64,000 nt of DNA from positions 41,850,001 to 41,914,000 of the forward strand of contig NC_073379.1 in assembly GCF_028641065.1 (NCBI RefSeq). Reading direction: 5' to 3'. The notes beneath the pieces are model-generated. The model did not search any database, had not been told where the DNA came from, and saw nothing but the letters and a program-made list of their open reading frames with translations. The position numbers and the translations under genes are program-made. Source of the stretch: Leucoraja erinacea. Taxonomy: Eukaryota. Position 1 is the first letter of the stretch, and every line of letters begins with the position of its first letter. Positions 1,644 to 63,818 of the stretch are shown here, piece after piece.

Positions 1644-1734
1644 GAGACTTTCCATACCGTTTGAGAGACCGTGAACAACTCAGGAAAAGAAAGCTGGAAG
1701 CACAGGAGCAGAAAAGCTCACAGTGGGTGTTTAA
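1644..1734 (+). CDS. HEMGN: Hemogen internal coding exon (basic/coiled-coil NLS region)
   Basis: Acceptor gttctgtcactAG (1642-1643), donor GTaaga (1735). Encodes xDFPYRLRDREQLRKRKLEAQEQKSSQWVF(K), closely matching the conserved hemogen motif as recalled from human (LRNREQLRKRKAEVHEKETSQWLF). Not in the ORF track because it is short. Confidence 0.88.
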
Positions 1735-4114: not shown

Positions 4115-4295
4115 AACACAACTCCAAGGACCACATGAAATATCAGTTTTTTATTTTTGATTAAACAATAAAACTTTGACTGGGAATACTAGTCGCGCAA
4201 GTAGAATCTACACTTTCATTCATTTTGCATTTGGAATGATGCACGCCATTTTCAAAATGGTTATAAATCTATTGACCAATTGGATTTGCTAATGG

Positions 4296-5825
4296 AAGAT
4301 AGACACAAAATGCTGGAGTAACTCAGCGGGACAGGCAGCATCTCTGGAGTTTCGGGTCGAGGTCCTTCTTCGGACCGATGTCAGGGGAGTGGGCGGTACA
4401 GAGATAAAATGTGGTCGGAGACAGTAAGACTGGTGGGAGAACTGGGAAGGGGGAGGGCATGGAAAGAGAGGGAAAGCAAGGGCTACTTGAAGCTAGAGAA
4501 ATCAATGCTCATACCACTGGGGTGTAAGCTGCCCAAGCGAAATATGAAGTGTTGTTCCTCCAATTTGTGCTGGGCCTCACTCTGACAATGGAGGACACCG
4601 AGGGCAGAAAGGTCTGTGTATGAATGGTAAGGAGAATTGAAGTGTCCAGCAACCAGGAGATCAGGTTGGTTCATGCGGGCTGAGCTGTTTTACGCGAAAT
4701 GATCACCCAGTCTGCGTTTGGTCTCGCCGATGTACAAGAGCCCACATCTTGAACAATGGAACCTCAGCTAAACCGGAATGGACTGTCTGAGTCCCTGACA
4801 GAGTCGAGGGAGGAGGTATTGTATCATCTACAGTTGCAGGGGAAGGTACCTGGGGAGGGGGTGGTTTGGGTGGGAAGGGATGAGTTAACCAGGGAGTTGC
4901 GGAGGGAACAGTCTCTGCGGAAGGTGGAAAGGGGTGGAGATGGGAATATGTGGCTAGTGGTGGGGTGCCATTGGAGGTGGCGGCAATTTTGGAGAATTAT
5001 GTATTGTGAACGACGGCTGATGAGGTGGAAGGCGAGGATTAGGGGGACCCTGTTGCAACTAAGGGAAGGGGGAACAAGGGTGGAGCTGCAGGGTACCATG
5101 GAGACATCAGTGAGGGCCTCACCTATGATGGGAGAGGGAAACCCCCGTTCCCTAAAGAATGAGGAAATCTCAGATGTTCTAGTATGGAACACCTCATCTT
5201 GGGCGCAGATGCGGCATAGAAAGAACAATTGGGAGTAGGGGGAATAGAGTCTTTGCAGGAAGCAGGGTGCTAATAAGTGTAGTTGACATAGTTGTGGGAG
5301 TCAGTGGGCTTGTAATGGATGTCAACAGCCTATTTCTTGTAATGGAGATTGTGAGATCAAGAAAGGGGAGGGAGGTGTTGGAGATGGTCCACGTAAATTT
5401 GAGTGCAGGATGAAAATTGATGGTGAAGTTGATGAAGTCCAGGAGTTCTGCACTGACCTTTCTGTCCTGGGCCTCCTCCATTGTCAGAGTGAGGCCCAGC
5501 ACTAATTGGAGGAACAACACCTCATATTTTGCTTGGGCAGCTATGGTGATATGAACATCGACTTCACTAACTTCAAGTAGCCCTTGCTTTCCCTCTCTCT
5601 CCATCCTCCATCCCCCCCCCCCCCCCCCCCCCCCACCAATCTTACTGTCTCCGACTACATTTTATCTCTGTGCTGCCCACTTCAGACTGATGTTAGGGGA
5701 GAAGGGTCTCGACATGAAACGTCACCCATTCCTTCTCTCCAGAGATGCTGCCTGTCCCACTGAGATACTCCAGCATCTATCTGTGTCCATCTCGATTTAA
5801 ACAAGCAGCTGCAGTTCTTTCCTAC
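4296..5825. mobile_element. Penelope-like element with inverted structure and perfect 14-bp TSD
   Basis: TSD GGATTTGCTAATGG at 4282-4295 and 5826-5839. Minus-strand RT/GIY-YIG fragments (NFHPALKFTWTIS, FFRERGFP, LEEQHFIFRLGSLHPSGM), a + strand copy of the C-terminus at ~5450-5580, and terminal modules at both ends in inverted orientation. Confidence 0.88.
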
Positions 5826-5856
5826 GGATTTGCTAATGGGATGAGTTGATAAGTGA

Positions 5857-8053: not shown

Positions 8054-8331
8054 GGAGAAATCAAAGACAAAAAGAGGAAGAAAGGCAAAAGCTAGTGGAA
8101 CAAGCAGTAAACTTCCCAAGGAACCTGAGCCTGTGCCTGAGCTGGAGCCCAAGCCCGAGCCCGAGTCGAAGCCTGAGCCTGAACCTGTTCTACAGCCAAT
8201 CCTTTTGCAAGAAGAAGAAGAAGAAGCCACAGACAAAGTAGCAGAATTGAGTCTTGAAAGAGAGAAGCTTGCCCCACTGCAGGAAAGTGTAAACCTTTCC
8301 CCAACTGGGGATCTGGCTGCTACTTTAACAG
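8054..8331 (+). CDS. HEMGN: Hemogen coding exon (KRGRK basic motif, Pro/Glu repeat, acidic stretch)
   Basis: Acceptor cacAG (8052-8053), phase 2 compatible with the previous exon (AA+G=Lys). Encodes EKSKTKRGRKAKASGTSSKLPKEPEPVPELEPKPEPESKPEPEPVLQPILLQEEEEEATD...LAATLT; donor acaG|GTactc at 8332. Confidence 0.82.
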
Positions 8332-8422
8332 GTACTCAACATGACCAATTATGCATTACATAGCCTCGTGCGAAGGATTGGGTCCACTTTATTAAACACT
8401 CAATTTAGCGGCAACACGTTAT

Positions 8423-9721
8423 TGATTAGGAACAGTCAACATGGATTTGTGCCTGGAAGGTCATGTTTGACTAATCTTCTTGAATTTTTTGAAGAGGTTA
8501 CTAGGGAAATTGACGAGGGTAAAGCAGTGGATGTTGTCTATATGGACTTTCGTAAGGCCTTTGACAAGGTTCCTCATGGAAGGTTGGTTAAGAAGGTTCA
8601 ACTGTTGGGTATAAATGCAGGAATAGCAAGATGGATTCAACAGTGGCTGAATGGGAGAAGCCAGAGGGTAATGGTGGATGGCTGTTTATCGGGTTGGAGG
8701 CAGGTGACTAGTGGGGTGCCTCAGGGATCTGTGTTGGGTCCTTTGTTGTTTGTCATGTACATCAATGATCTGGATGAAGGTGTGGTAAATTGGATTAGTA
8801 AGTATGCAGATGATACCAAGATAGGGGGTGTTGTGGATAATGAAGAGGATTTCCAAAGTCTACAGAGTGATTTAGGCCATTTGGAAAAATGGGCTGAAAG
8901 ATGGCAGATGGAGTTTAATGCTGATAAATGTGAGGTGCTACACCTTGGCAGGACAAATCAAAATAGGACGTACATGGTAAATGGTAGGGAATTGAAGAAT
9001 ACAGTTGAACAGAGGGATCTGGGTATAACCGTGCATAGTTCCTTGAAAGTGGAATCTCATATAGATAGGGTGGTAAAGAAAGCTTTTTGTATGCTAGCCT
9101 TTATAAATCAGAGCATTGAGTATAGAAGCTGGGATGTAATGTTAAAATTGTACAAGGCATTGGTGAGACCAAATCTGGAGTATGGTGTACAATTTTGGTC
9201 GCCAATTATAGGAAGGATGTCAACAAAATAGAGAGAGTACAGAGGAGATTTACTAGAATGTTGCCTGGGTTTCAACAACTAAGTTACAGAGATAGGTTGA
9301 ATAAGTTAGGTCTTTATTCTCTGGAGCGCAGAAGGTTAAGGGGGGATTTGATAGAGGTCTTTAAAATGATGAGAGGGATAGACAGAGTTGATGTGGACAA
9401 GCTTTTCCCTTTGAGAATGGGGAAGATTCAAACAAGAGGACATGACTTCAGAATTAAGGGACAGAAGTTTAGGGGTAATATGAGAGGGAACTTCTTTACT
9501 CAGAGAGTGGTAGTGGTGTGGAATGAGCTTCCAGTGGAAGTGGTGGAGGCAGGTTCATTGGTATCATTTAAAAATAAATTGGATAGGCATATGGATGAGA
9601 AGGGAATGGAGGGTTATGGTACGAGTGCAGGCAGGTGGGACTAAGGGGAAAAAAAGTTGTTCGGCACGGACTTGTAGGGCCGAGATGGCCTGTTTCCGTG
9701 CTGTGATTGTTATATGGTTAT
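8423..9721 (+). mobile_element. CR1 LINE, 5'-truncated, young (RT domain plus C-terminus, one frameshift)
   Basis: SQHGFVPGRSCLTNL, DFRKAFDKVPH, GVPQGSVLGPLLF, YADDTK; frameshift near 9205; 3' UTR ending in a gttatatggtta tail. Lies in a hemogen intron. Confidence 0.95.
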
Positions 9722-9981
9722 TTCATTCTAAAGACATATTTGCAAGCAAAGTATAAATGTTCCTTAGAAATTATATCAGGATTATAGAAAAACTATGTAG
9801 AATAAAGCTGATAAGAAGCAGTGATGAGCTGTGTACCTCATGAAATATTTAAAATACTGCCTGGTAACCATGACTTCAATGCCTATATTGCTTTTTCACT
9901 TGGGGGGTGGGGGGGGGGGGGGTTGTCATATCTTACCTTAGCAATGAGAATAAAATACTGTATTCTTCAATTTTATTCCAG

Positions 9982-10094
9982 ATGGGCTCGGAGAGAATAC
10001 CCGTGTGAAAATACCAGAGATTGTAGCACTGCAAGTAGAAGATGTGCCTGGTGAAAATCCTCCATTTGAAGAACAAATAGTTTTGTCTATATAA
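9982..10094 (+). CDS. HEMGN: Hemogen probable last coding exon
   Basis: Strong acceptor ttcttcaattttattccAG (9980-9981), phase 1 compatible (G+AT=Asp). Encodes DGLGENTRVKIPEIVALQVEDVPGENPPFEEQIVLSI*, stop TAA 10092-10094. Called from splice signals, phase and acidic composition rather than recognised homology. Confidence 0.7.
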
Positions 10095-10114
10095 AATCGA
10101 CACCACATCTAAAA

Positions 10115-10368
10115 GTTAGACAAAAATGCTGGAGAAACTCAGCGGGTGAGGCAGCATCTATGGAGTGAAGGAAATAGGCAAAGTTTCGGGTCAAGACCCT
10201 TCTTCAGTCTGACCCTAAATGTTGCCAATTTCCTTCTTCAGTCTGAAGAAGTGTCTCGACCCGAAACGTTGCCTATTTCCTTCGCTCAATAGATGCTGCC
10301 TCGCCCGCTGAGTTTCTCCAGCATTTTGGTCTACCTTCGATTTTACAGCATCTGCAGTTCCTTCTTAA
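10115..10368. mobile_element. Fold-back non-autonomous PLE-terminus element with hammerhead-like motif
   Basis: Inverted arms ~10117-10207 and ~10243-10333; TSD ACACCACAT[C/T]TAAAA at 10100-10114 and 10369-10383. Confidence 0.85.
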
Positions 10369-10819
10369 ACACCACATTTAAAAAATCGTTTTGAGTTTTA
10401 TCTGACATTTGTTATTACACAGGGGAGATAACAATACCACTCACCCCCACAGGCCAAAACACTCATTATTAGAAGGTGCAAATTTGCATCCTGCCCTAAT
10501 ATATAGTTTGATACATCAGGGCTTCAATGGATGTTGACATCTTTCTTTAATGTGCCACTTTCTGGGAGGATGTGAAACCAAATCCTGACAATCTCCTGTT
10601 CTTCATGATGCATCGTGCAGAGAAAAACAAGAAATGGAAAAGGCAGTACTTTTAAAGTAAAAGAGAATTAACCCTATAGACAGGAATATTACAAGGAGTA
10701 CTACGGGTACAGACACAGGGCATTCAGGTTAACTGGTCTAAGCATGTTACCATTCCAGAAATACAAAGCAGCTACAGCCATTTAGTCCCTTGTGACTGGT
10801 CAGGTTTTCAATTGGATTA

Positions 10820-11968
10820 CTAGACTAAGTGGGACCCTTTGGGTCCCTGTCACACAGGAGGCTTGGTCCCCCAACGCAATATTCCACCACTCACCCATAG
10901 CCCCCTACTGCACAGGCGCAGCTCATTTCCCCGCACTCTCTCCCCCTCCTCTTCACCCTCACTCTTCATTCCCCTCCCCTCCCCAAATCCCTCCCTCATC
11001 TCTCTCCCTCCCCTTTCTCCTACCCTGCCACTCCCCCCCTCCTACCTCTCTATCCCACACTCCTCACCTATCCTTCCTCACCTCCCCCACTGCTCTCACG
11101 TCCCTCTATTCCCCACTCCCTACCTCCTCCACTTCTCTACCTCTATTCCCCCTCCTCCCCACCTTACCTCTTCTTTTCCCTCTCCTCCTGCCCTCCCTTG
11201 ATCCCTCCCTCACCTCTCCTTTCCCCTATCCTCAGTCACTCACTCCCTCCTCTCCCTTACCCACCTCCCATCTTCTCCCTCTATCCCCTCTCCTTCCCCA
11301 CTCTACCTCCCCAGGATCTCGATGTTGCCGCTCCTCTCCCTTCTTGCATGCCCCGGAGGAATATCAGCCGTCGATGCGGATTCTCAGCTCGGCCCAGGGG
11401 GGGGGGGGGTTCCGGTGGGGGGGAAGGAGGGGAGGGACGGGGGGGGGGGGGGGGGGGGGGAGGAGGGGGGGGTATCAGGGGAAGGGGGAGCAGGAGCCAG
11501 CGAGGGGGGGACCAGAAGGGAAAGGGCTGGAGCTGTAGGGCGTTGCGTTTGGCAATATCGGCGACATCTCCGATTTCGCGCCGGCCCAAGCCGGGCTGGA
11601 CTGCTTCCAATCCCTCTGAAAACTGTGTCCAGTTGGAGACCTCCGTCGGCCACCCGCAGTGTCCCACAGCTCCAGTAAAGACGCGATGGCGCAGGAAGGG
11701 GCGGACCGTCCCGGGGAGTGACAGGAGAAGTGACTAATCTGCGCGGCGCTGACTGGCAGGAGAATCTGCGCATGCGCGTTTAAGATTTTTAAACCTCGCT
11801 AATTTTTACAACATACTACTGATTGGAACAAACCTTAGTGCACTCGCAGCACAGGAGAACGGTGATACCCTAACAAGAAATCGTAGCGCTATCGTGTACC
11901 TTTTTTGCGCAAATAGGAAACCGCGCAAACTGGAAGAGCACAAGATCAGAGTTTTAGTTATGTATAGA
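10820..11968 (-). mobile_element. Non-autonomous Helitron
   Basis: On the minus strand: 5' TCTATACATAAC..., 3' hairpin GGGACCC-AAA-GGGTCCC then acttagtCTAG; inserted between A and T with no TSD. Internal pyrimidine-rich tract (~10930-11310) and G-runs (~11395-11520). Confidence 0.8.
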
Positions 11969-12479
11969 TAGATGGTTCAGCATAAGATTCAGAATCAAGA
12001 GAAAATTCAACGGTCTCCCTACTTACATTGCCTTCAATAAGGGCTTGACTGATTATATGCCTCACCTTTTTTTCCTGAGGCCTCCTATCCTCCGATTCTC
12101 TCCACGTCCAAAAAACATATTCAAGGTCTCCAACTTGAATATATTCAGCCAGAGCTCTCATCAGCTCATTCTAAATGGCTGACCACTGTGACTGTGTGCC
12201 CTGGTTCTAAACTCACCAATGTGAGCAAATAGCTTTTCTGCATTTCCCTGTCAATTTCTTTCAAAATAGATTATTTGTCATCCTATTAAAAATGTACAAG
12301 CTAATCTTGGTTACTTTAGCAACTACTTCATCCTAGGTGTGAAGCTAGTGAATCTATGCTGCAAGACTACAAAACAATTGCAACCTTCTTTACATGCAGA
12401 GCCCAACATTCCACAGTTCTCCAAATGAGCCATCACCAAATTCCTGTATAAGCTTATTAAAACTACTTTACAATAACAT

Positions 12480-13300
12480 CCACTATTGTAGATGATATGG
12501 AAAGTGGTGATGTTGCTAATGTTGAAGGGGATAATTTTAATTTATAGATATTGATCAGCTGGTAAATTTTGTGGAGCAATGGTGGATGGAATTTAGTCTT
12601 GGAAAATGTGAGGTCAAATAACATAAGAACATGCGCCATGAATGGTCGGGCCCAAGAGAGCATTGAGGAACAGACCTTGATGTACAAATCCATTGATTTC
12701 TGTATGTGGCAGGACAGGTAGATGGGGGATACGGATGGCAAAGAAGGCATATGGGATGCTGACTATTAATAGATGCTGCATAAGAGCACAAAGGTCATGG
12801 TACAACTTTAAGACATTAGTTATACCACATATTCTACATTAAGTATGGTGTGCAATTCTGGTTGCCATAGTATAGAATGGATGTTACCGGCAAACCCACA
12901 GGTCTTTGGTATGTTGGAGGAAACCAGATTACAAGAATGAAGCCACGTGGTCGCAGGGAAAACGTGCCAACTCCACATGGGCAGCACCCGAGATCTGGAT
13001 TTAATCTGGGTCTTTTGTGCTGCGAGGCAGCAGTTTTATCTGTTGAGCTGTTGTGCTGCCCAGTGAAGAGTAAAGAGGTTTGAGGGGGATCTGAGGAAAA
13101 TAAAACCATGCAGAATTTGACAACAGGAATGCACAGCCTAAGAAGGTCGTGAAAGCAGGTACACTGACAACATTTAAGTATCTGAACAGCACCTGAATCA
13201 CTAAAACATATAAAGCTATGGAGTAAGTGTAGTAAATATTAATTATAGATGGGTACTTGCTGGTCAACAAGGATGCTAGAAAAGCCTGTTCCATTCTCTA
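12480..13300. mobile_element. Degenerate CR1 (+) interrupted by a V-SINE (-, ~12886-13060)
   Basis: CR1-like tggtgtgcaattctggttgcca and decayed 3' UTR; reverse-complement V-domain/tRNA head in the middle. Confidence 0.55.
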
Positions 13301-14889
13301 CGATTCAATTACGGTTTGCCTTCTTACTTGTTTGCTCTACCTGCATATTTATTTCCTGTGGCTGATGATCAACGTATCAAGATCCATTCTTACACCAATA
13401 TTTATCCACTCACCCAAAGGAAACAAATAAATGTTGAGGATTTTATGGTTAATTTATAATGACCTCAACACTTTTCTTTGGAGTTTAACTGTCAATCACA
13501 ATGTTGAATTTTCCAATGATTAAGTATCCAAAAATCACAGTTGATGTATCTCCATACACATGACTTTGCCCAATTTCCCTGATATTTTTAAGGTACTTTA
13601 GGTATCAGAACTAATTCATGCTGGCTTAATCTTATGTATCAGCATATTCTCGTAATAATTTCTCTCCTGTGTTTTTATCTGTAAACTGATGCATCTCTTC
13701 TCTTCATCTAAATTATTCCATGTGATAGAGAGTTTCACACTCTCACCAGTCTCCGAGTGAAGGAGTTTCTTCTGAATTCCTCATTGGATATATTAGTGAG
13801 AAAGAAAAATGGAAAACAAATACAGTCAACTCCACTTTTTTCCCCCCCAATGTCCTTGGAAATCCACATGACACCTAGTATAATGCACTTGGAAATTATA
13901 CATTTCAGCTTCCTATACAGGCTCCAATTTCAAAGCTGCAAGAAGAGAGCAAAATTCTCACTGACTCAGAAAATGTGGTACAGAGATGCAACAATCTGAT
14001 TAGCAACTGTAAGTGTCTCCCCTTAATGATGTGCAGGATTTACAACACCTTTTCGACAGAAATTCAGAGTTATTTTTGTAAATGTTACAAGGCATTTCCC
14101 AATGAAGTAGTTCACTCTCATCAAATCTTTTATGTTCTGGATCTGACTTGATGACAATGTGATATGTTTTTTACTGTATAGTAGATACGAAAGAAAAGAA
14201 AAAGTAATGTTAAAGGAATGCGAAAATAAAGAAATTATTTACCCCTGCATTTCAATAGATTGTTCATATATTATCCCAGAGGACAACCCAATACTTTATT
14301 TAACATTACCTAAAATATAATATTTCACTTTACTTAATGAAGTGGTACCAATTTCTCTTCCTAATCTTGGATACGTGTATTTACTGGTGATATAAATGAT
14401 AGATTCTAAACCAGTAAATGGAAGCCTTTTGCAGTCATTTAATACAACAGCTGCAACATTTGTCTTGGCAATTGTGGATGCACATGTACCCATGAAGCAT
14501 GGAACCAAACAATATAAATGATACTGTTTTTACCGTACTCAAGTTCAAATAATTCAACGTTTATGACTAAATTTAGCATACTTGACTTAAGCGTGCCTTT
14601 CCATTGCTTTGTTAATATTAATGTCACAGAGCCCGACAAGATAAAGGAGCTGAAATAAGAGCTAAAATTACTGGAAATACTCAGAAGGTTAACCAGCCTC
14701 CATGGATACAGAGAAATCATATCAGCTAGATAACTCTAGATCAGAACAGGTCAAAGATAAAGGGCAATATTTAATGGAATTGCAGGCAGGAAATGAGGGA
14801 CGAGGGAGCAGAAGTAAATAGTTTGTGATAGCATCGATGGCAGATTAAATTGGATTTTAATAAAGGACAGGGAAAGGAAAAAAGACGTT

Positions 14890-16870
14890 GATAGACACAA
14901 AATGTTAGAGTAACACAGCATCTCTGGAGAAAAGGATTAGGTGACATTTCAGTACAAGACCCTTCATCAGACTGACAGTCAGGGAGGGGGACACTAGAGG
15001 TATGGGAAGGTAAAGATTGTGGGCTGTCTGAGGAAAGGTGCAGCCCACATTGTTGACTGAGGACAAGGTGATAACGAGGGGATATGAGCAGTGAAACCAG
15101 CAAGACAACCAGGAAAGAGATGGAATGCAAGGGTTACTTGAAGTTGGAGAAATCAATGTTAATGTCGCTGGGGAGTAAGCTAGCCCAAGCAAAATATGAG
15201 GTGCTGTTCCTCCAAACAGATTGTGGCCTCTGACAGTGGAGGAGGCTCAGGACAGAAAGGTTGGTATGGGAGTGGGAAGGGGATTGGTACTGGGGAAACC
15301 ATGTAGGCCAAGGCGGACTGAGCATAGGTGTTCAGCAAAACGATCGCCCAGTCTACGCTTCGTCTCGCCAATATACAGGAGTACACAGCAAGAACACCGA
15401 ATAGAGTAGGTAGACAAAAGTGCTGGAGAACCTCAGCGAGTGCGGCAGCATCTACTGAGCGAAGGAAATGGGCAACGTTTCAGGCCGAAACCCTTCTTCA
15501 GACCAGGAGTTGAGGGGGGCTTTACCTCCCCCTTCAACTCCATTCAAGGACCCAAGCAGTCGTTCCAGGTGTGACAGAGGCTCATCTGCACCTCCTCCAA
15601 CCTCATCTATTGCATCCGCTGCTCTAGATGTCAGCAGATCTACATCGGTGAGACCAAGCGTAGCCTTGGCGATCGTTTCGCCGAACACCTCCTCTCGGTC
15701 CGCAATAACCAACCTGATCTCCCGGTGGCTCAGCACTTCCCCTCCCATTCTGAATCCGACCTTTCTGTCCTGGGCCTCCTCCATGGCCAAAGTGAGCACC
15801 ACAGGAAATTGGAGGAGCAGCACCTCATATTTCGCTTGGGCAGTTTATACCCCAGCAGCATGAACATTTACTTCTCCAATTTCCGGTTGCCCTTATTGTC
15901 TCCTCCTCTTCTCAGCTCTCCCTCAGCCCTCTGGCTCCTCCTCTTCCTTTCTTCTTCCTTCCCTCCCCCCACATCAGTCTGAAGAAGGGTTTCGGCCCGA
16001 AATGTTGCCAATTTCCTGCCTCACCCGCTGAGTTTCTCCAGCACTTTTGTCTACCTTCAATTTTCCAGCATCTGCAGTTCCTTCTTAAACACCGAATACA
16101 GTAGATTGGGTTGGAGGAAATGCGAGTGAACCTCTGCCTCACCTGAAAGGACTGTCGGGGTCCCTGAATAGCATTGAGTGAGGAGGTGTAGGGACAGGTG
16201 TTGCATCTCCTGCAGTTGCAGGGGAAAGTACCTGGGGAGGGGGTGATTTGGGTGGGGAGGGTTGGAAACCAGGGAGTTTCGGAGGGAACGGAAAGCGGTG
16301 GAGATGGGAAGATGTGACTGGTAGTGGGATCTCATTGCAGGTGAAAATGTCAGAGGTGCTGTATGCAAAGGCTGCTGGGGTGAAAGATGACGACAAGGGG
16401 GACTGCCCCTGGTGTGACTGGGGCAAAGGAAGCAAGTGCCGAGAACACACGTGTGAGAGCATTATCCATGATAAAAGTGGCGAACCCCTGTTCCCAAAAG
16501 AATGAGGACATCTCGGATGTTCCTGTATGTCCTGTGTTGGGCGCAGTTGCGGCAGAGATAGAGGAATTGGGAGTAGAGGATAGAATCTTTGCAGGGTGGG
16601 AAGAAACGTAGTCCCGATAGCTGTGGGACTCAGTAGTTTTGAAATAGTCGTCAGTTGATAGTCTATCTACTGTGATAGAGACAGTGAGATCAAGAACGGG
16701 GAGGGAGGTGTTGGAGATGGTCCAAGTGAATTTGAGAGCAGGATGGAAATTGGTAGTGAGGTTAATGAAGTTCATGAGTTCTTTCTGGGTACAGGAGGTA
16801 GCCTCGATGCAGTCATGAATGTAGCGGATATAGAGTTCCAGGATAAGGCCAGTGTATGCCTGGAGATGGA
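14890..16870 (-). mobile_element. Penelope-like element (host copy) split by a nested PLE
   Basis: Minus-strand NFINLTTNFHPALKFTWTIS, RQRFTRISSNPIYCIRC and LEEQHLIFCLG; terminal module at ~14890-14975; reading continues across the 15410-16087 insertion. Confidence 0.82.
15410..16087 (+). mobile_element. Nested Penelope-like element (inverted 5' module + GIY-YIG fragment + 3' module)
   Basis: TSD AACACCGAATA[G/C]AGTAG at 15393-15409 and 16088-16104; GIY-YIG coding DNA (atctattgcatccgctgc...tacatcggtgagaccaagcg = IYCIRC..YIGETKR). Confidence 0.88.
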
Positions 16871-25845: not shown

Positions 25846-26760
25846 ACTCAATTTTACTTGGACCATCTCCGACACCTCCAACTCCTTTCTTGATCTCAGT
25901 CTCCATCACAGGAAATAGTCTATCATCTGATGTCTATTACAAACCCACAGCTATCTCGACTACACTTCATCCCACCCTGCTTCTATCCCTTTCTTCCAAT
26001 TCCTCCATCTATGCCACATCTGCGCATAAGATGAAGTATTCTATACCAGGACATCCAAGATGTACTCATTCTTTAGGGAACGGGGGTTCCCCTCTCCCAT
26101 CATAGACGAGGCCCTCGTTCATGTCTCCTCAGTACCCTGCAGTTCCGCCCTTACTCCCCCTTACCCTAGTCGCAACAGACAGAGTCCCCCTAACCTTTCA
26201 CCCCATCACCTATCATATACAACACATAATTCCACCACTAGCCACATTTTCCCATCTCCATCGCTTTCTGCCTTCTGCAGAGACCGTTCCCTCCGCAACT
26301 CCCTGGTTAACTCATCCCTTCCCACCCAAACTACCCCCACCCCATGTACCTTCCCCTGCAACCGCAGAGGATGCAACACCTGTCCGTATACCTCCTCTCT
26401 TGACTCTGTCCAGGGATCCCGACAGTCCTTTCAGGTTGGGCAGAAGGTAACTTGCACCTCCTCCAAACTCATCTACTGTATCCGTTGTTCAAAATGTGGA
26501 CCCTTATACATCGGGGAGACCAAACACAGACTGTCAGCCCGCCTGAACCTACCCGATCTCCCGGTTGCTAAATACTTTCATTCTCCTTCTCATTCCCACA
26601 CAGACCTTTCTGTCCTAGGTCTCCTCCATTGCCAGAGTGAGGCTGAACACAAATTGGAGGAACAGCATCTCATATTTTGCTTGGGCAGCTTACAGCCAGT
26701 GATATGAATATTGATTTCTCTCACCTCTAATTCCATCTCCCTCTCTCTCTCTCCCTACCC
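25846..26760 (+). mobile_element. Penelope-like element, RT thumb + GIY-YIG endonuclease fragment
   Basis: ORF 26060-26707: FFRERGFP...FPCNRRGCNTC...IYCIRCSKCGPLYIGETK...LEEQHLIFCLGSLQP. Confidence 0.9.
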
Positions 26761-32065: not shown

Positions 32066-32272
32066 CTAGACACAAAAAGTTGGAGTAACACAGCCAAGCC
32101 GGCAGCATCTCTGGAGGGAAGGGTCAAAACGTTTTTTCAGTCTGAAGAAGGGACTCGACCAGAAACGTCCCCCGTTCCTTCTCTCCAGAAATGCTGCATG
32201 TTCCGCTGAGTTAATGCAGCATTTTGTGTCTATCTTCGGTGTAAACCAGCATCTGCAGTTTCTCCCGACACA
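32066..32272. mobile_element. Degenerate fold-back PLE-terminus element
   Basis: Inverted arm starting tagacacaaaaag, then a + module with core ctgaagaagggactcgaccagaaacgtc (32142-32169) and tail; another minus module at ~32390-32515. Confidence 0.7.
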
Positions 32273-39794: not shown

Positions 39795-41393
39795 CAGGTG
39801 CACAACCTTTTATCCGACGATCCAAATAACGAAAACCTCCGAATAGCGACATTTTTTCAGTCCTTGAATAAAGGTCCTTGAAAACGTTCACCGAGGGCGG
39901 CCCGCAGAGGTGACAGCGGAACCTCCGGTCGGTCCTCGAAGAAAGGGGAACTAAATCCCCATTCATAAAAGAGAAGGTGAGGGTATATTGCGCGGGAGGG
40001 TTAATAATTGACAATATGCTGCTGCCTGCCCGCTGAGTTATAAAGTTCCCACGGTAGACTCACGATACACAGTAGTAGATTGTCGCTCCCTTCAGTTTCA
40101 CCCCACCTACACCCACCCCTCTGCTTCCCTGTGTGTGACCCCTTCCCTCCCCTCTCCAGCTCCCCGCGCATTGCACCGGCGCGGGGGCTTTGCACTGTCT
40201 TCACGCCGGAGCCAGTGCCAGTCACCGGAGACGTCAGGACCAACGGGACACCGACCCCCAGGCCCACTGCAAGCACGGAGAACCCAGAGACCCACAGCCA
40301 GCAGCAGCCCAGCCCCGTTCCAATTCCAGAGGAACACGCTCTCCGCTGTCCCCGTAGGGGCAGAAGGTGATGGCTCGGGCTGTGACGTCTCCGGCCACCC
40401 CCTGTACAGGAGCTGAGACTGGGAACTGTGGGGTTGTTTGCAGTTGCAGAGGGAGGGGGCAAGGGCGGTAAAGTTCCCAGTCTCAGCTCCATTCCAGGGG
40501 GGTGACCGGGGACGTCAGGACCAACGGGACACTGACTGCAAGCACGGAGATCCCAGAGACTCACAGCCAGCAGCAACTCTAGCCCAGCCCCGCTCCAACT
40601 CCAGAGGAACCCGGGTTGCGGATGAGGGGGCGCAGCTCGGGCTGTGGGCGAACTGCCACTTGTCGCTGTAACGGCGCATCGGGGAGCCGGTTCCTGTTGG
40701 TCCTGACGTCTCCGGCCATCCCCCTGGACAGGAGCTGAGAGACGTCAGGACCACCAGAAGCCGCTCCCCGATGCGCCGCTACAGCGACAAGTGGCAGTTC
40801 GCCCACAGCCCGAGCTGCGCCCCCTCATCGGGACACCGACCCCCAGGCCCACTGCAAGCACGGAGATCCCAGAGACTCACAGCCAGCAACAACTCTAGCC
40901 CAGCCCCGCTCCAACTCCAGAGGAACCCGGGTTGCGGATGAGGGGGCGCAGCTCGGGCTGTGGGCGAACTGCCACTTGTCGCCGTAGCGGCCCATCGGGG
41001 AGCGGATTCCTCTGGAGTTGGAGGGACAGGGAGACACAGCGGCTTTTGAGAATGGTGGGCAATCACTTCCAAAGTTCTGCCCACACAGTCAGTACACCTC
41101 TCCTACACTTGTCTCCCGCACTAAGATCATCTCGCAGAGAATGATCCCAGCCTAACCTCCCTATTCTCTCCTATTCTGCAAGAACAAAACTACATTGAAG
41201 ACTCAAACTCGCGATCGAGTAACTGCTGGGATCGAGGCGCTAACTCGCGACCTTGCGGATACGAGCCGAGCACTCTACCACTGAGCCGGCCGTTAAAATC
41301 TACGCTAAAAATCTTCCATTCCGAAAGCCGAAAAATTCTGAATTACGAAAAGTGTCTGGTCCCAAGGCTTTCGGATAAAAGGTTGTGCACCTG
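39795..41393. mobile_element. Non-autonomous Tc1/mariner-superfamily (pogo/Tigger-like) element in TRMO intron 2
   Basis: Perfect 23-bp TIR CAGGTGCACAACCTTTTATCCGA at both ends, TA TSD (39793-39794, 41394-41395); GC-rich interior with direct and inverted duplications, no transposase. Confidence 0.9.
41224..41292 (-). pseudogene. tRNA-like sequence (Thr-CGT-like, disrupted) inside the TcMar element
   Basis: Minus strand CGGCCGGCTCAGTGGTAGAGTGCTCGGCTCGTATCCGCAAGGTCGCGAGTT(AGCGCC)TCGATCCCAGCA: D-arm/A-box and anticodon loop CT-CGT-AT visible; T-arm/B-box interrupted. Confidence 0.55.
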
Positions 41394-47271: not shown

Positions 47272-47622
47272 AGTGAGTGGTATGAATATTGATTTCTCTC
47301 ATTTCAGGTGGCACCGGCATTCCCTCTTTCGCTATCCCTTCCCCACCCGAGTTGCACTAGCTTCTTATTTTCACCCTACAAACAGCCTGTTTCCTTTATC
47401 ATTGTTACTTTTTTTGCATATCTTTCATTCATTGTTCTTTATCTCTCCACATCACCGTCTATATCTCTCGTCTCCCTTATCCCTAACCAGTCTGAAGAAG
47501 GGTCTCGACCTGAAACGTCATCCATTCTTTCTCTCCAGAGATGCTGCCTGTTCAGCTGAGATACTCCAGCTTTTTGTGTCTATCTTCGGTTTAAACCAGC
47601 ATCTGCAGTTCCTTCTTACACA
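47272..47622 (+). mobile_element. PLE 3' end with complete terminal module
   Basis: SGMNIDFSHF (end of PLE ORF), pyrimidine-rich UTR, core CTGAAGA A GGGT CTCG ACCT GAAA CGTC (47492-47519), tail ending ccttcttacaca. Confidence 0.85.
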
Positions 47623-48505: not shown

Positions 48506-48794
48506 CTGGCACAATATTTTAGTTCAATATTTTCAATTTAAAAAAAAAAAAATAGATCAAATTGATTCATTCTCTGAATTTTAAATGTTGTGGATAACCA
48601 TGTTAAAAATACTAAATGAATGTGAAATTTTACATGTGTAAGAAGGAACAGCAGATGCTGGTTTAAACCGAAGATAGACACAAAAAGCTGGAGTAACTCA
48701 GCGGGACAGGCAGCATCCCTGGAGATGTTACATGTTAGATGTTACATGAATTTTTACATGTTTGATGTGTAACATATTTCTAAACCTTTCTTAG

Positions 48795-63110: not shown

Positions 63111-63624
63111 AGTTTTATATAATTTAGGTTTATATAAGGATGTGAACGATGCTTTTTATTGGAACATTTGAATTTGACATGAAAATAAGAAATTGAGACC
63201 AAAGTTGAAACCAAACTCAAAATCATCATGATTTTTTTTCATGTAAAAAAGATGCTTTATAATGCATTGATGTTTCATTTTTTTTACATCAGAGAAGGCT
63301 GTTTTCACTATTAAATAATTCGACGTGATTGAAACTTATGGAGACATTGGAAAATGGCCCTCATGATTATATCTTTTTAACCAGGTACATTTCGGTTTAT
63401 CAACAGCCATTTTATCCATCTTTTAACTTTCCTTGTCTTACCGTAGCACACCTCTTTATAGTTACATAATTATAGATTATTTATAAAATTTGTCTGAGTA
63501 ATGGGAATTAAAATGATGTTACAAACAGTTTTGGTTTGGGATTTTCTTAAATTAAAATAAAAAATAGGCAAAGTATTGTGCAACAGTCAAACCTTATGAA
63601 TCTGAGTTTTCCTGACAAAGTATC

Positions 63625-63818
63625 AGACAGCGTCTCTGGAGAAAAGGAATAGTTGACGTTTCGGATGTGAACCCTTCTTCAGACTGACTGAATACTAAGA
63701 TGGGTTAGACCCGAAACGACACATATTTATTTTCTCCAAAAACGATGCCTGACTCGCTGAGTTTCTTCAGCATGTCGTGTCTACGGTATAAACCAGCATC
63801 CGCAGTTCCTTCTTACAT
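63625..63818. mobile_element. Fold-back PLE-terminus element
   Basis: Minus core CTGAAGA A GGGT TCAC ATCC GAAA CGTC (63655-63682) facing a + arm gacccgaaacgac...cagttccttcttaca. Confidence 0.72.

Follow-up and report, generated by a model that had tools for sequence, protein, structure and literature searches.

The window, by which we mean the whole 64-kb stretch of Leucoraja erinacea DNA that was analysed, contains a hemogen-like gene and, shortly behind its last coding exon, a compact insertion that we assign to the terminal repeat of a Penelope-like retroelement (PLE). An earlier note on this DNA had named the host gene as hemogen and had placed the start of the element 20 nt past the stop codon. 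Both statements stand, since proteins named hemogen-like share this last exon, the TAA lies at 10092-10094 and the element begins at 10115. The features of the locus and one longer copy of the same PLE subfamily are:

1646..1734, plus strand: hemogen-like coding exon with the RLRDREQLRKRK motif (translation and proteins P0001-P0003)
8054..8331, plus strand: hemogen-like coding exon with Pro/Glu repeats and an acidic stretch (100% identity to P0001)
9982..10094, plus strand: last coding exon, to TAA (the C-terminus of P0001 equals the translation; a contig of run X1 enters at the acceptor)
10090..10095, plus strand: TATAAA, a putative weak variant of the poly(A) signal that runs across the stop codon (sequence motif)
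10100..10114, no strand: left copy of the target-site duplication, ACACCACATCTAAAA (repeat comparison)
10115..10207, minus strand: inverted, tail-less copy of the PLE terminal repeat (pLTR), the 5' arm of the hairpin (sequence comparison)
10204..10236, plus strand: decayed partial sense module, consisting of CTGA and, with helix II missing, a copy of 10258-10283; the hairpin loop
10238..10337, plus strand: sense pLTR copy, the 3' arm of the hairpin (sequence comparison)
10243..10270, plus strand: minimal type I hammerhead motif with a private helix II change at 10252 and a would-be cut after 10270 (pattern, alignment and fold; descriptor from PMC4209133)
10338..10371, plus strand: one-sided PLE 'tail' of 31-34 nt, found in sense copies and not in the inverted arm
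10369..10383, no strand: right copy of the target-site duplication, its first 3 nt common to the family end (repeat and family comparison)
15408..16091, plus strand: longer copy of the same subfamily, with an inverted module, a GIY-YIG frame (15575-15982), a sense module plus tail and a 17-nt flanking repeat

The hemogen-like gene and its surroundings

A protein labelled Leucoraja erinacea matches exon 8054-8331 with 100% identity, and its cluster mate is named hemogen-like isoform X1. The matching protein and its Amblyraja radiata relative both terminate with exon 9982-10094, and the Rhinoraja protein ends 8 residues earlier, within the same last-exon sequence. Pfam gave no match on the hemogen exons except for a low-complexity PARP match below the cut-off. 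Downstream of the gene and on the same strand, Pfam detects a TrmO domain; in human, TRMO presumably also follows HEMGN. Exon 2 (1646-1734) has a second donor 12 nt upstream, resulting in isoforms of 176 and 172 residues. This pair matches zebrafish hemogen, whose coding sequence is described as spread over four exons, with exon 2 varying by four codons through splicing (PMC6124579), and the two-donor splice choice may date back to jawed vertebrates.

Repeats of other kinds are also present. A LINE-type reverse-transcriptase fragment with a 300-codon open frame (8329-9231) occupies 8332-9720 and starts within ~30 nt of the exon 3 donor. Another repeat (10813-11970), with a long C-rich tract and G runs, is found ~430 nt past the element, and reads and contigs of other loci stack on 10814-10860. 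A GC-rich inverted-repeat cluster at 40409-41009 comprises three copies with 82-nt arms that are 91% complementary, and it gives weak, sub-threshold microRNA-like Rfam scores.

A compact Penelope-like insertion and its relatives

The direct repeats at 10100-10114 and 10369-10383 are identical at 14 of 15 positions, which has a chance probability of ~2e-4 even when a generous 50x50 register search is allowed for; the proposed 15-bp target-site duplication with one mismatch is thus well founded. Because ACA, the first letters of the right duplication, also ends family copies, the right border is given as 10368-10371. The element had been described as 254 bp made only of two inverted PLE modules. 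It does consist of PLE terminal modules, yet a third partial module and a tail are also present: the 25-nt spacer between the arms belongs to a decayed third sense module (10210-10236 against 10258-10283, 88% match), and the tail (10338-10368/10371) is attached to the 3' module only, the inverted arm being without it. On sequence grounds, the element is an extremely 5'-truncated PLE insertion of 254 bases.

The terminal module has 24 matches in the 64-kb window. It is identified as a PLE end because the copy at 15408-16091 carries it, as the sense module 15974-16091, after the GIY-YIG frame. This frame scores slightly below the Pfam cut-off (22.0 against 22.6 bits, E 2e-4), and its closest protein among six database relatives (P0006, 81% identity) carries the reverse transcriptase domain PF00078. 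Visual inspection of frames 15912-16331 and 26030-26707 showed a CxCxxCxxC-type stretch before GIY-YIG, which may be compared with the Zn-finger-like linker motif of Neptune and Nematis. Two annotated skate proteins, P0007 and P0008, fuse PLE endonuclease sequence to the unrelated PF15008 and PF13695, and represent either exonised PLE pieces or gene-model errors.

Seven minus-then-plus module pairs lie within 2 kb of each other, and three of them are compact fold-backs with gaps of 9-25 nt (10113-10371, 32067-32263 and 63624-63817). An adjoining inverted, 5'-truncated copy also occurs at 4291, 15408, 32067 and 63624. Flanking direct repeats of 14-17 nt were found for three of the seven candidates searched, including 4291-5826 (14 nt) and 15408-16091 (17 nt), and no convincing flanking duplication was found for the other four, among them both other compact fold-backs. 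The latter (32067-32263 and 63624-63817) are older PLE ends with arms identical at 44 of 56 positions. The regions 4282-5839 and 15393-16104 are longer PLE insertions with inverted ends and the 14- and 17-nt flanking repeats, the first of them inside a hemogen intron. An inverted module pair (47532-47622 and 48635-48725), 95% complementary over 91 nt and 1012 nt apart, is located immediately upstream of the TRMO exon at 48773 and is likely to form intronic double-stranded RNA. Of the 49,399 contigs that a DNA-sized run of another organism places on the stretch, almost all match the module or other repeats. Contigs and reads of other copies show joints from 10207 to 10241-10253, which suggests that other loci share this fold-back junction.

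Typical of PLEs are incomplete tandem copies, a neighbouring 5'-truncated copy in inverted orientation and a tail of 30-40 bp that is confined to one end (PMC8557442); another study links the tail to two internal starts of reverse transcription and reports AT-rich targets (PMC11167929). The hemogen element resembles the complex insertions of endonuclease-positive (EN+) PLEs in these two sources: it has the same inverted tail-less 5' copy, partial tandem and full tailed terminal copy, the same AT-rich site and a hammerhead in the repeat, while GIY-YIG is carried by longer copies in the window. It differs in that no coding sequence is left and in its site within a host 3' UTR. The term TSD is absent from the text of PMC8557442, so the 15-bp duplication that flanks the hemogen element has no counterpart for comparison there. 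Non-LTR retrozymes are likewise non-coding and PLE-derived and have a type I hammerhead, but they are described as arrays of head-to-tail units that contain two or more complete ribozymes (bioRxiv 10.64898/2026.07.22.740005), whereas the two copies of the hemogen element are inverted and its single sense core is damaged. Classification as a retrozyme was rejected, the element having one sense core and a core-less remnant, and TRF finding no head-to-tail array in 9600-13600. MITEs, which are DNA transposons, have symmetric terminal inverted repeats at both borders and a short duplication; this class was also rejected, in view of the unpaired 3' tail, the 12-15 bp duplication and a module that corresponds to a retroelement end. 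The literature search, made largely in freely readable main texts, returned no report of a PLE or hammerhead in a hemogen UTR, and the main text of PMC10115646 mentions neither Penelope nor hemogen.

The hairpin and its hammerhead motif

The arms 10113-10212 and 10238-10337 form 91 Watson-Crick and 2 G-U pairs among 100, with 7 mismatches. The region 10095-10400 folds at a predicted -167.9 kcal/mol, a stability that was reached by none of 100 shuffles (z -23.9), and the longest unbroken predicted helix has 39 bp. A read-through mRNA would therefore hold a predicted stem of ~100 bp, comparable to inverted Alu pairs. Alu elements are about 300 bp long, and the hemogen stem differs in its predicted length (~100 rather than ~300 bp) and in that both arms come from one insertion. 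The inverted Alu pairs of 3' UTRs share the two inverted copies and a predicted long double-stranded RNA that is open to ADAR, Staufen and retention factors (PMC11263572).

Compared with five other copies of the subfamily, eight changes have arisen after insertion, four in each arm and all one-sided (six mismatches and two wobbles), and a ninth non-standard pair corresponds to the junction. None of the eight is compensatory. The majority line used for this count included both arms themselves (two of seven rows), and the arms share a loop variant that is seen in other copies too. The arm identity (91/100) equals that of two other duplication-flanked copies (74/80 and 65/73) and exceeds that of the other two compact fold-backs (44/56 each), for which age alone can account; the duplication has decayed (1/15) at a rate like that of the arms. 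This pattern is what neutral ageing would give, and these small numbers carry no sign of selection, although weak selection could escape notice with only eight changes.

The earlier note had recognised a sense hammerhead-like core with one helix II mismatch that is sequestered by its antisense arm, and both observations were reproduced. The conserved core nucleotides are complete (CTGAAGA, A and, further on, GAAA, CGT and T within 10243-10270), and the additional nucleotide and palindromic CG typical of minimal hammerheads are also present. The core pattern occurs in 10 of the 24 module matches, and its columns are conserved in a 12-copy alignment. The mismatch sets T10252 opposite C10261. This T is private, as the other 11 of the 12 aligned copies have G, and G also makes up 99.7% of the X1 depth at this position. 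Helix II thus has 4 bp with its second pair broken, and helix I has 2 bp, as in other copies. Helix III requires a dimer, for which there is no intact partner, the upstream remnant being without a core. The predicted unpaired probability is ~0 at 10243-10251 and 10263-10266, and the cleavage-competent fold lies above the minimum by 38.0 kcal/mol in 10095-10400, by 21.7 kcal/mol in a transcript ending at 10275 and by 12.8 kcal/mol when 10213-10275 is folded by itself. Joining the spacer remnant and the sense core into a permuted hammerhead costs 40.8 kcal/mol over the minimum in 10095-10400, and this arrangement was rejected. At E<=1, Rfam gave five matches over the entire window, none of them a hammerhead and none at the element, a result of little weight as these hammerhead variants are minimal. 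The raw runs contain no pile-up of ends at the cut site, at a locus depth too low to count.

Minimal hammerheads of PLE repeats were defined in PMC4209133, which also describes opposite-strand pairs 100-700 bp apart. The hemogen motif has the same CUGAnGA, the extra nucleotide before helix II, G10.1-C11.1, GAAA, the palindromic CG at 15.2-16.2 and paired opposite-strand copies; it differs in its 4-bp helix II with a broken second pair, its 2-bp helix I, the lack of an intact partner and its buried core. The supplementary alignments of that paper may include related fish motifs. A single minimal PLE motif did not cleave and multimers cleaved little (PMC4209133), and a PLE ribozyme from anole needed the protein of the element in vitro, with RNA-seq ends absent at its site (PMC11167929). 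Our models thus predict that the hemogen hammerhead is damaged and unlikely to cut.

Probable transcription across the element and competing explanations

Of 24 listed sequencing runs, 20 contain at least part of the stretch; none is RNA by its record, and several are guessed to be. Four of the 24 (X1, X23, X21 and X20) were compared with 9750-10860. The RNA status of X1 is a guess, but the run behaves as RNA, with zero intron depth and contig joins at the exon-4 acceptor. Its exon-4 contig has 108 non-matching letters before the acceptor and then reaches 10117 at depth 44.8; for the successor contigs, which start at 10088, bin arithmetic implies a summed depth of ~40. A zero-difference contig with locus-private letters covers 10298-10366 (depth 20.9), and another leads from 10342 to past 10860 (depth 8.0). 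A spacer contig (10183-10269, depth 8.6) has 2 differences and 26 non-fitting letters, and no X1 contig spans the whole element or both arms. Contig depth is a poor measure of expression, and with this reservation a large share of hemogen RNA is likely to enter and cross the element, in run X1 alone. X23 covers exon 4 at a depth of ~3-4-fold, has no coverage of 10396-10699, and its ends do not pile up. X21 (raw RNA) and X20 (DNA-sized), both from other organisms, have zero depth on exon 4 at 93% likeness, and none of the runs shows an empty site. The claim of a long double-stranded stem in the hemogen 3' UTR is therefore likely to hold for a large part of transcripts, according to the X1 contigs and the predicted fold.

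A-to-G changes on the element were rejected as evidence of editing because the DNA-sized run X20 has the same changes, which stem from other copies; reads of other copies swamp the element, so that locus-specific A-to-G sites are not separable. The X1 exon-4 contig stops right before A10118, a paired UAG adenosine, and ~40 of its 45 depth continues. An A/non-A branch is favoured here because a poly(A) tail would break the contig one base later. UAG is a preferred ADAR context. Editing and a single-nucleotide polymorphism fit equally, and a heterozygosity of 1.6% is given in PMC10115646.

The signals for 3' end formation agree with the earlier observation that only TATAAA, over the stop codon, and no AATAAA precedes the element: within 9982-13500, the first AATAAA is at 13099, and weaker variants occur at 10498, 10629, 10656 and 10760. 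With the element in place, TATAAA (10090) is set apart from the U-rich sequence 10386-10400. An outer helix (10095-10100 with 10337-10342) that would close this gap is predicted at 0.8-0.99 in two of three folded windows and at 0.31-0.38 in the largest, and folds that contain it also have the TAAA of TATAAA paired.

The readings that compete for this locus differ in what the hairpin does to the mRNA. If most transcripts ended at 10105-10125 via TATAAA, the stem would rarely be made at all; X1 depth is indeed highest on exon 4 and lowest downstream (44.8 and 8.0), and TATAAA precedes the end of the exon-4 contig by 20-25 nt. That contig, however, ends at T10117 without a run of A, its successors carry most of the depth onward, and the private-letter contig without differences still reaches 20.9 on the 3' arm, which leaves early termination unlikely. 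The hairpin could instead alter 3' end formation, either by rejoining TATAAA and the U-rich stretch, with cleavage just past the element, or by masking the signal and causing read-through. Hairpin-guided cleavage at mRNA 3' ends is described in PMC9290270, the geometry of the flanks and the outer helix of two folded windows would suit it, and so would the fall of X1 depth from 20.9 to a mean of 8.0 downstream and the X23 reads on exon 4 with none on 10396-10699. Against this stand the weaker outer helix in the largest window, the pairing of TAAA where that helix forms and the shallow X23 coverage without an end pile-up; moreover, mean contig depth cannot locate an end, and AATATA at 10498 fits equally. 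We consider such an effect decidedly improbable. The stem might also act as a control element: A-to-I editing and the binding of Staufen-type or nuclear-retention factors would then set hemogen mRNA output. Its length and unbroken 39-bp helix, the locus-specific X1 contigs on either side and on the 3' arm, the branch at A10118 and the precedent of inverted Alu pairs (PMC11263572) speak for this, but no arm change is compensatory, inverted module pairs are common in the window, including inside the TRMO gene, no contig crosses both arms, and no A-to-G site can be assigned to the locus, so that this role is quite unlikely.

An RNA-stability switch based on the ribozyme, as the earlier note had inferred, fares worst. 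It would require that editing, a helicase or a protein frees the core from the antisense arm and that the mRNA is then cut at 10270. All conserved core nucleotides are on the sense strand, a PLE hammerhead was assisted by protein in vitro (PMC11167929), and the Clec2d 3' UTR hammerhead reduces reporter output (PMC2950038). The Clec2 ribozymes share with the hemogen motif their place in a vertebrate 3' UTR; they are active ribozymes that mammals have conserved and that reduce reporter output (PMC2950038), whereas the hemogen motif is decayed and sequestered. The privately broken helix II, the 2-bp helix I, the missing dimer partner, the core-less remnant with its costly permuted fold, the 38 kcal/mol penalty (still 12.8 kcal/mol without the 5' arm) and the absence of compensation in the arms all count against a switch, as do the lack of cleavage by monomeric minimal hammerheads (PMC4209133) and of RNA-seq ends at the anole site (PMC11167929). 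A ribozyme switch on hemogen mRNA is thus very unlikely from these models, and cutting at 10270 appears hardly credible.

We are fairly confident that the element is the terminal repeat of an abundant PLE, with an inverted, a partial and a full tailed copy, and most likely a decaying passenger of the 3' UTR whose ribozyme is predicted not to cut. It would have arisen when the PLE GIY-YIG endonuclease nicked AT-rich DNA past the stop codon and reverse transcription halted after ~130 nt. Template switches at TCAG, a route suggested because the junctions share this sequence, may have added the partial and then the inverted copy, and repair would have left the 12-15-bp duplication. Upon read-through of the weak TATAAA, the arms would pair into the ~100-bp stem. 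Like inverted Alu pairs, this stem could undergo editing or binding, which would be a side effect and not a switch shaped by selection. What weighs against a mere passenger is that the element is probably transcribed with the gene in X1, so an effect on the mRNA is possible, selected or not. In sum, this is an ordinary PLE insertion at an interesting place, of a type already known and here in its shortest form.

The boldest version, which we regard as rather improbable, is that a single PLE fold-back split TATAAA from its downstream element and that the edited 100-bp hairpin now sets cleavage and stability of hemogen mRNA, as an elasmobranch counterpart of inverted Alu pairs. The site is convenient for testing this, because long reads could tell it from other copies by its arms, spacer and private mutations. 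Should hemogen output or the choice of the 3' end be under the control of the hairpin, the end of a Penelope element would have been co-opted by a host gene, which would point to PLE fold-backs as an ample source of double-stranded RNA and editing in cartilaginous fish.
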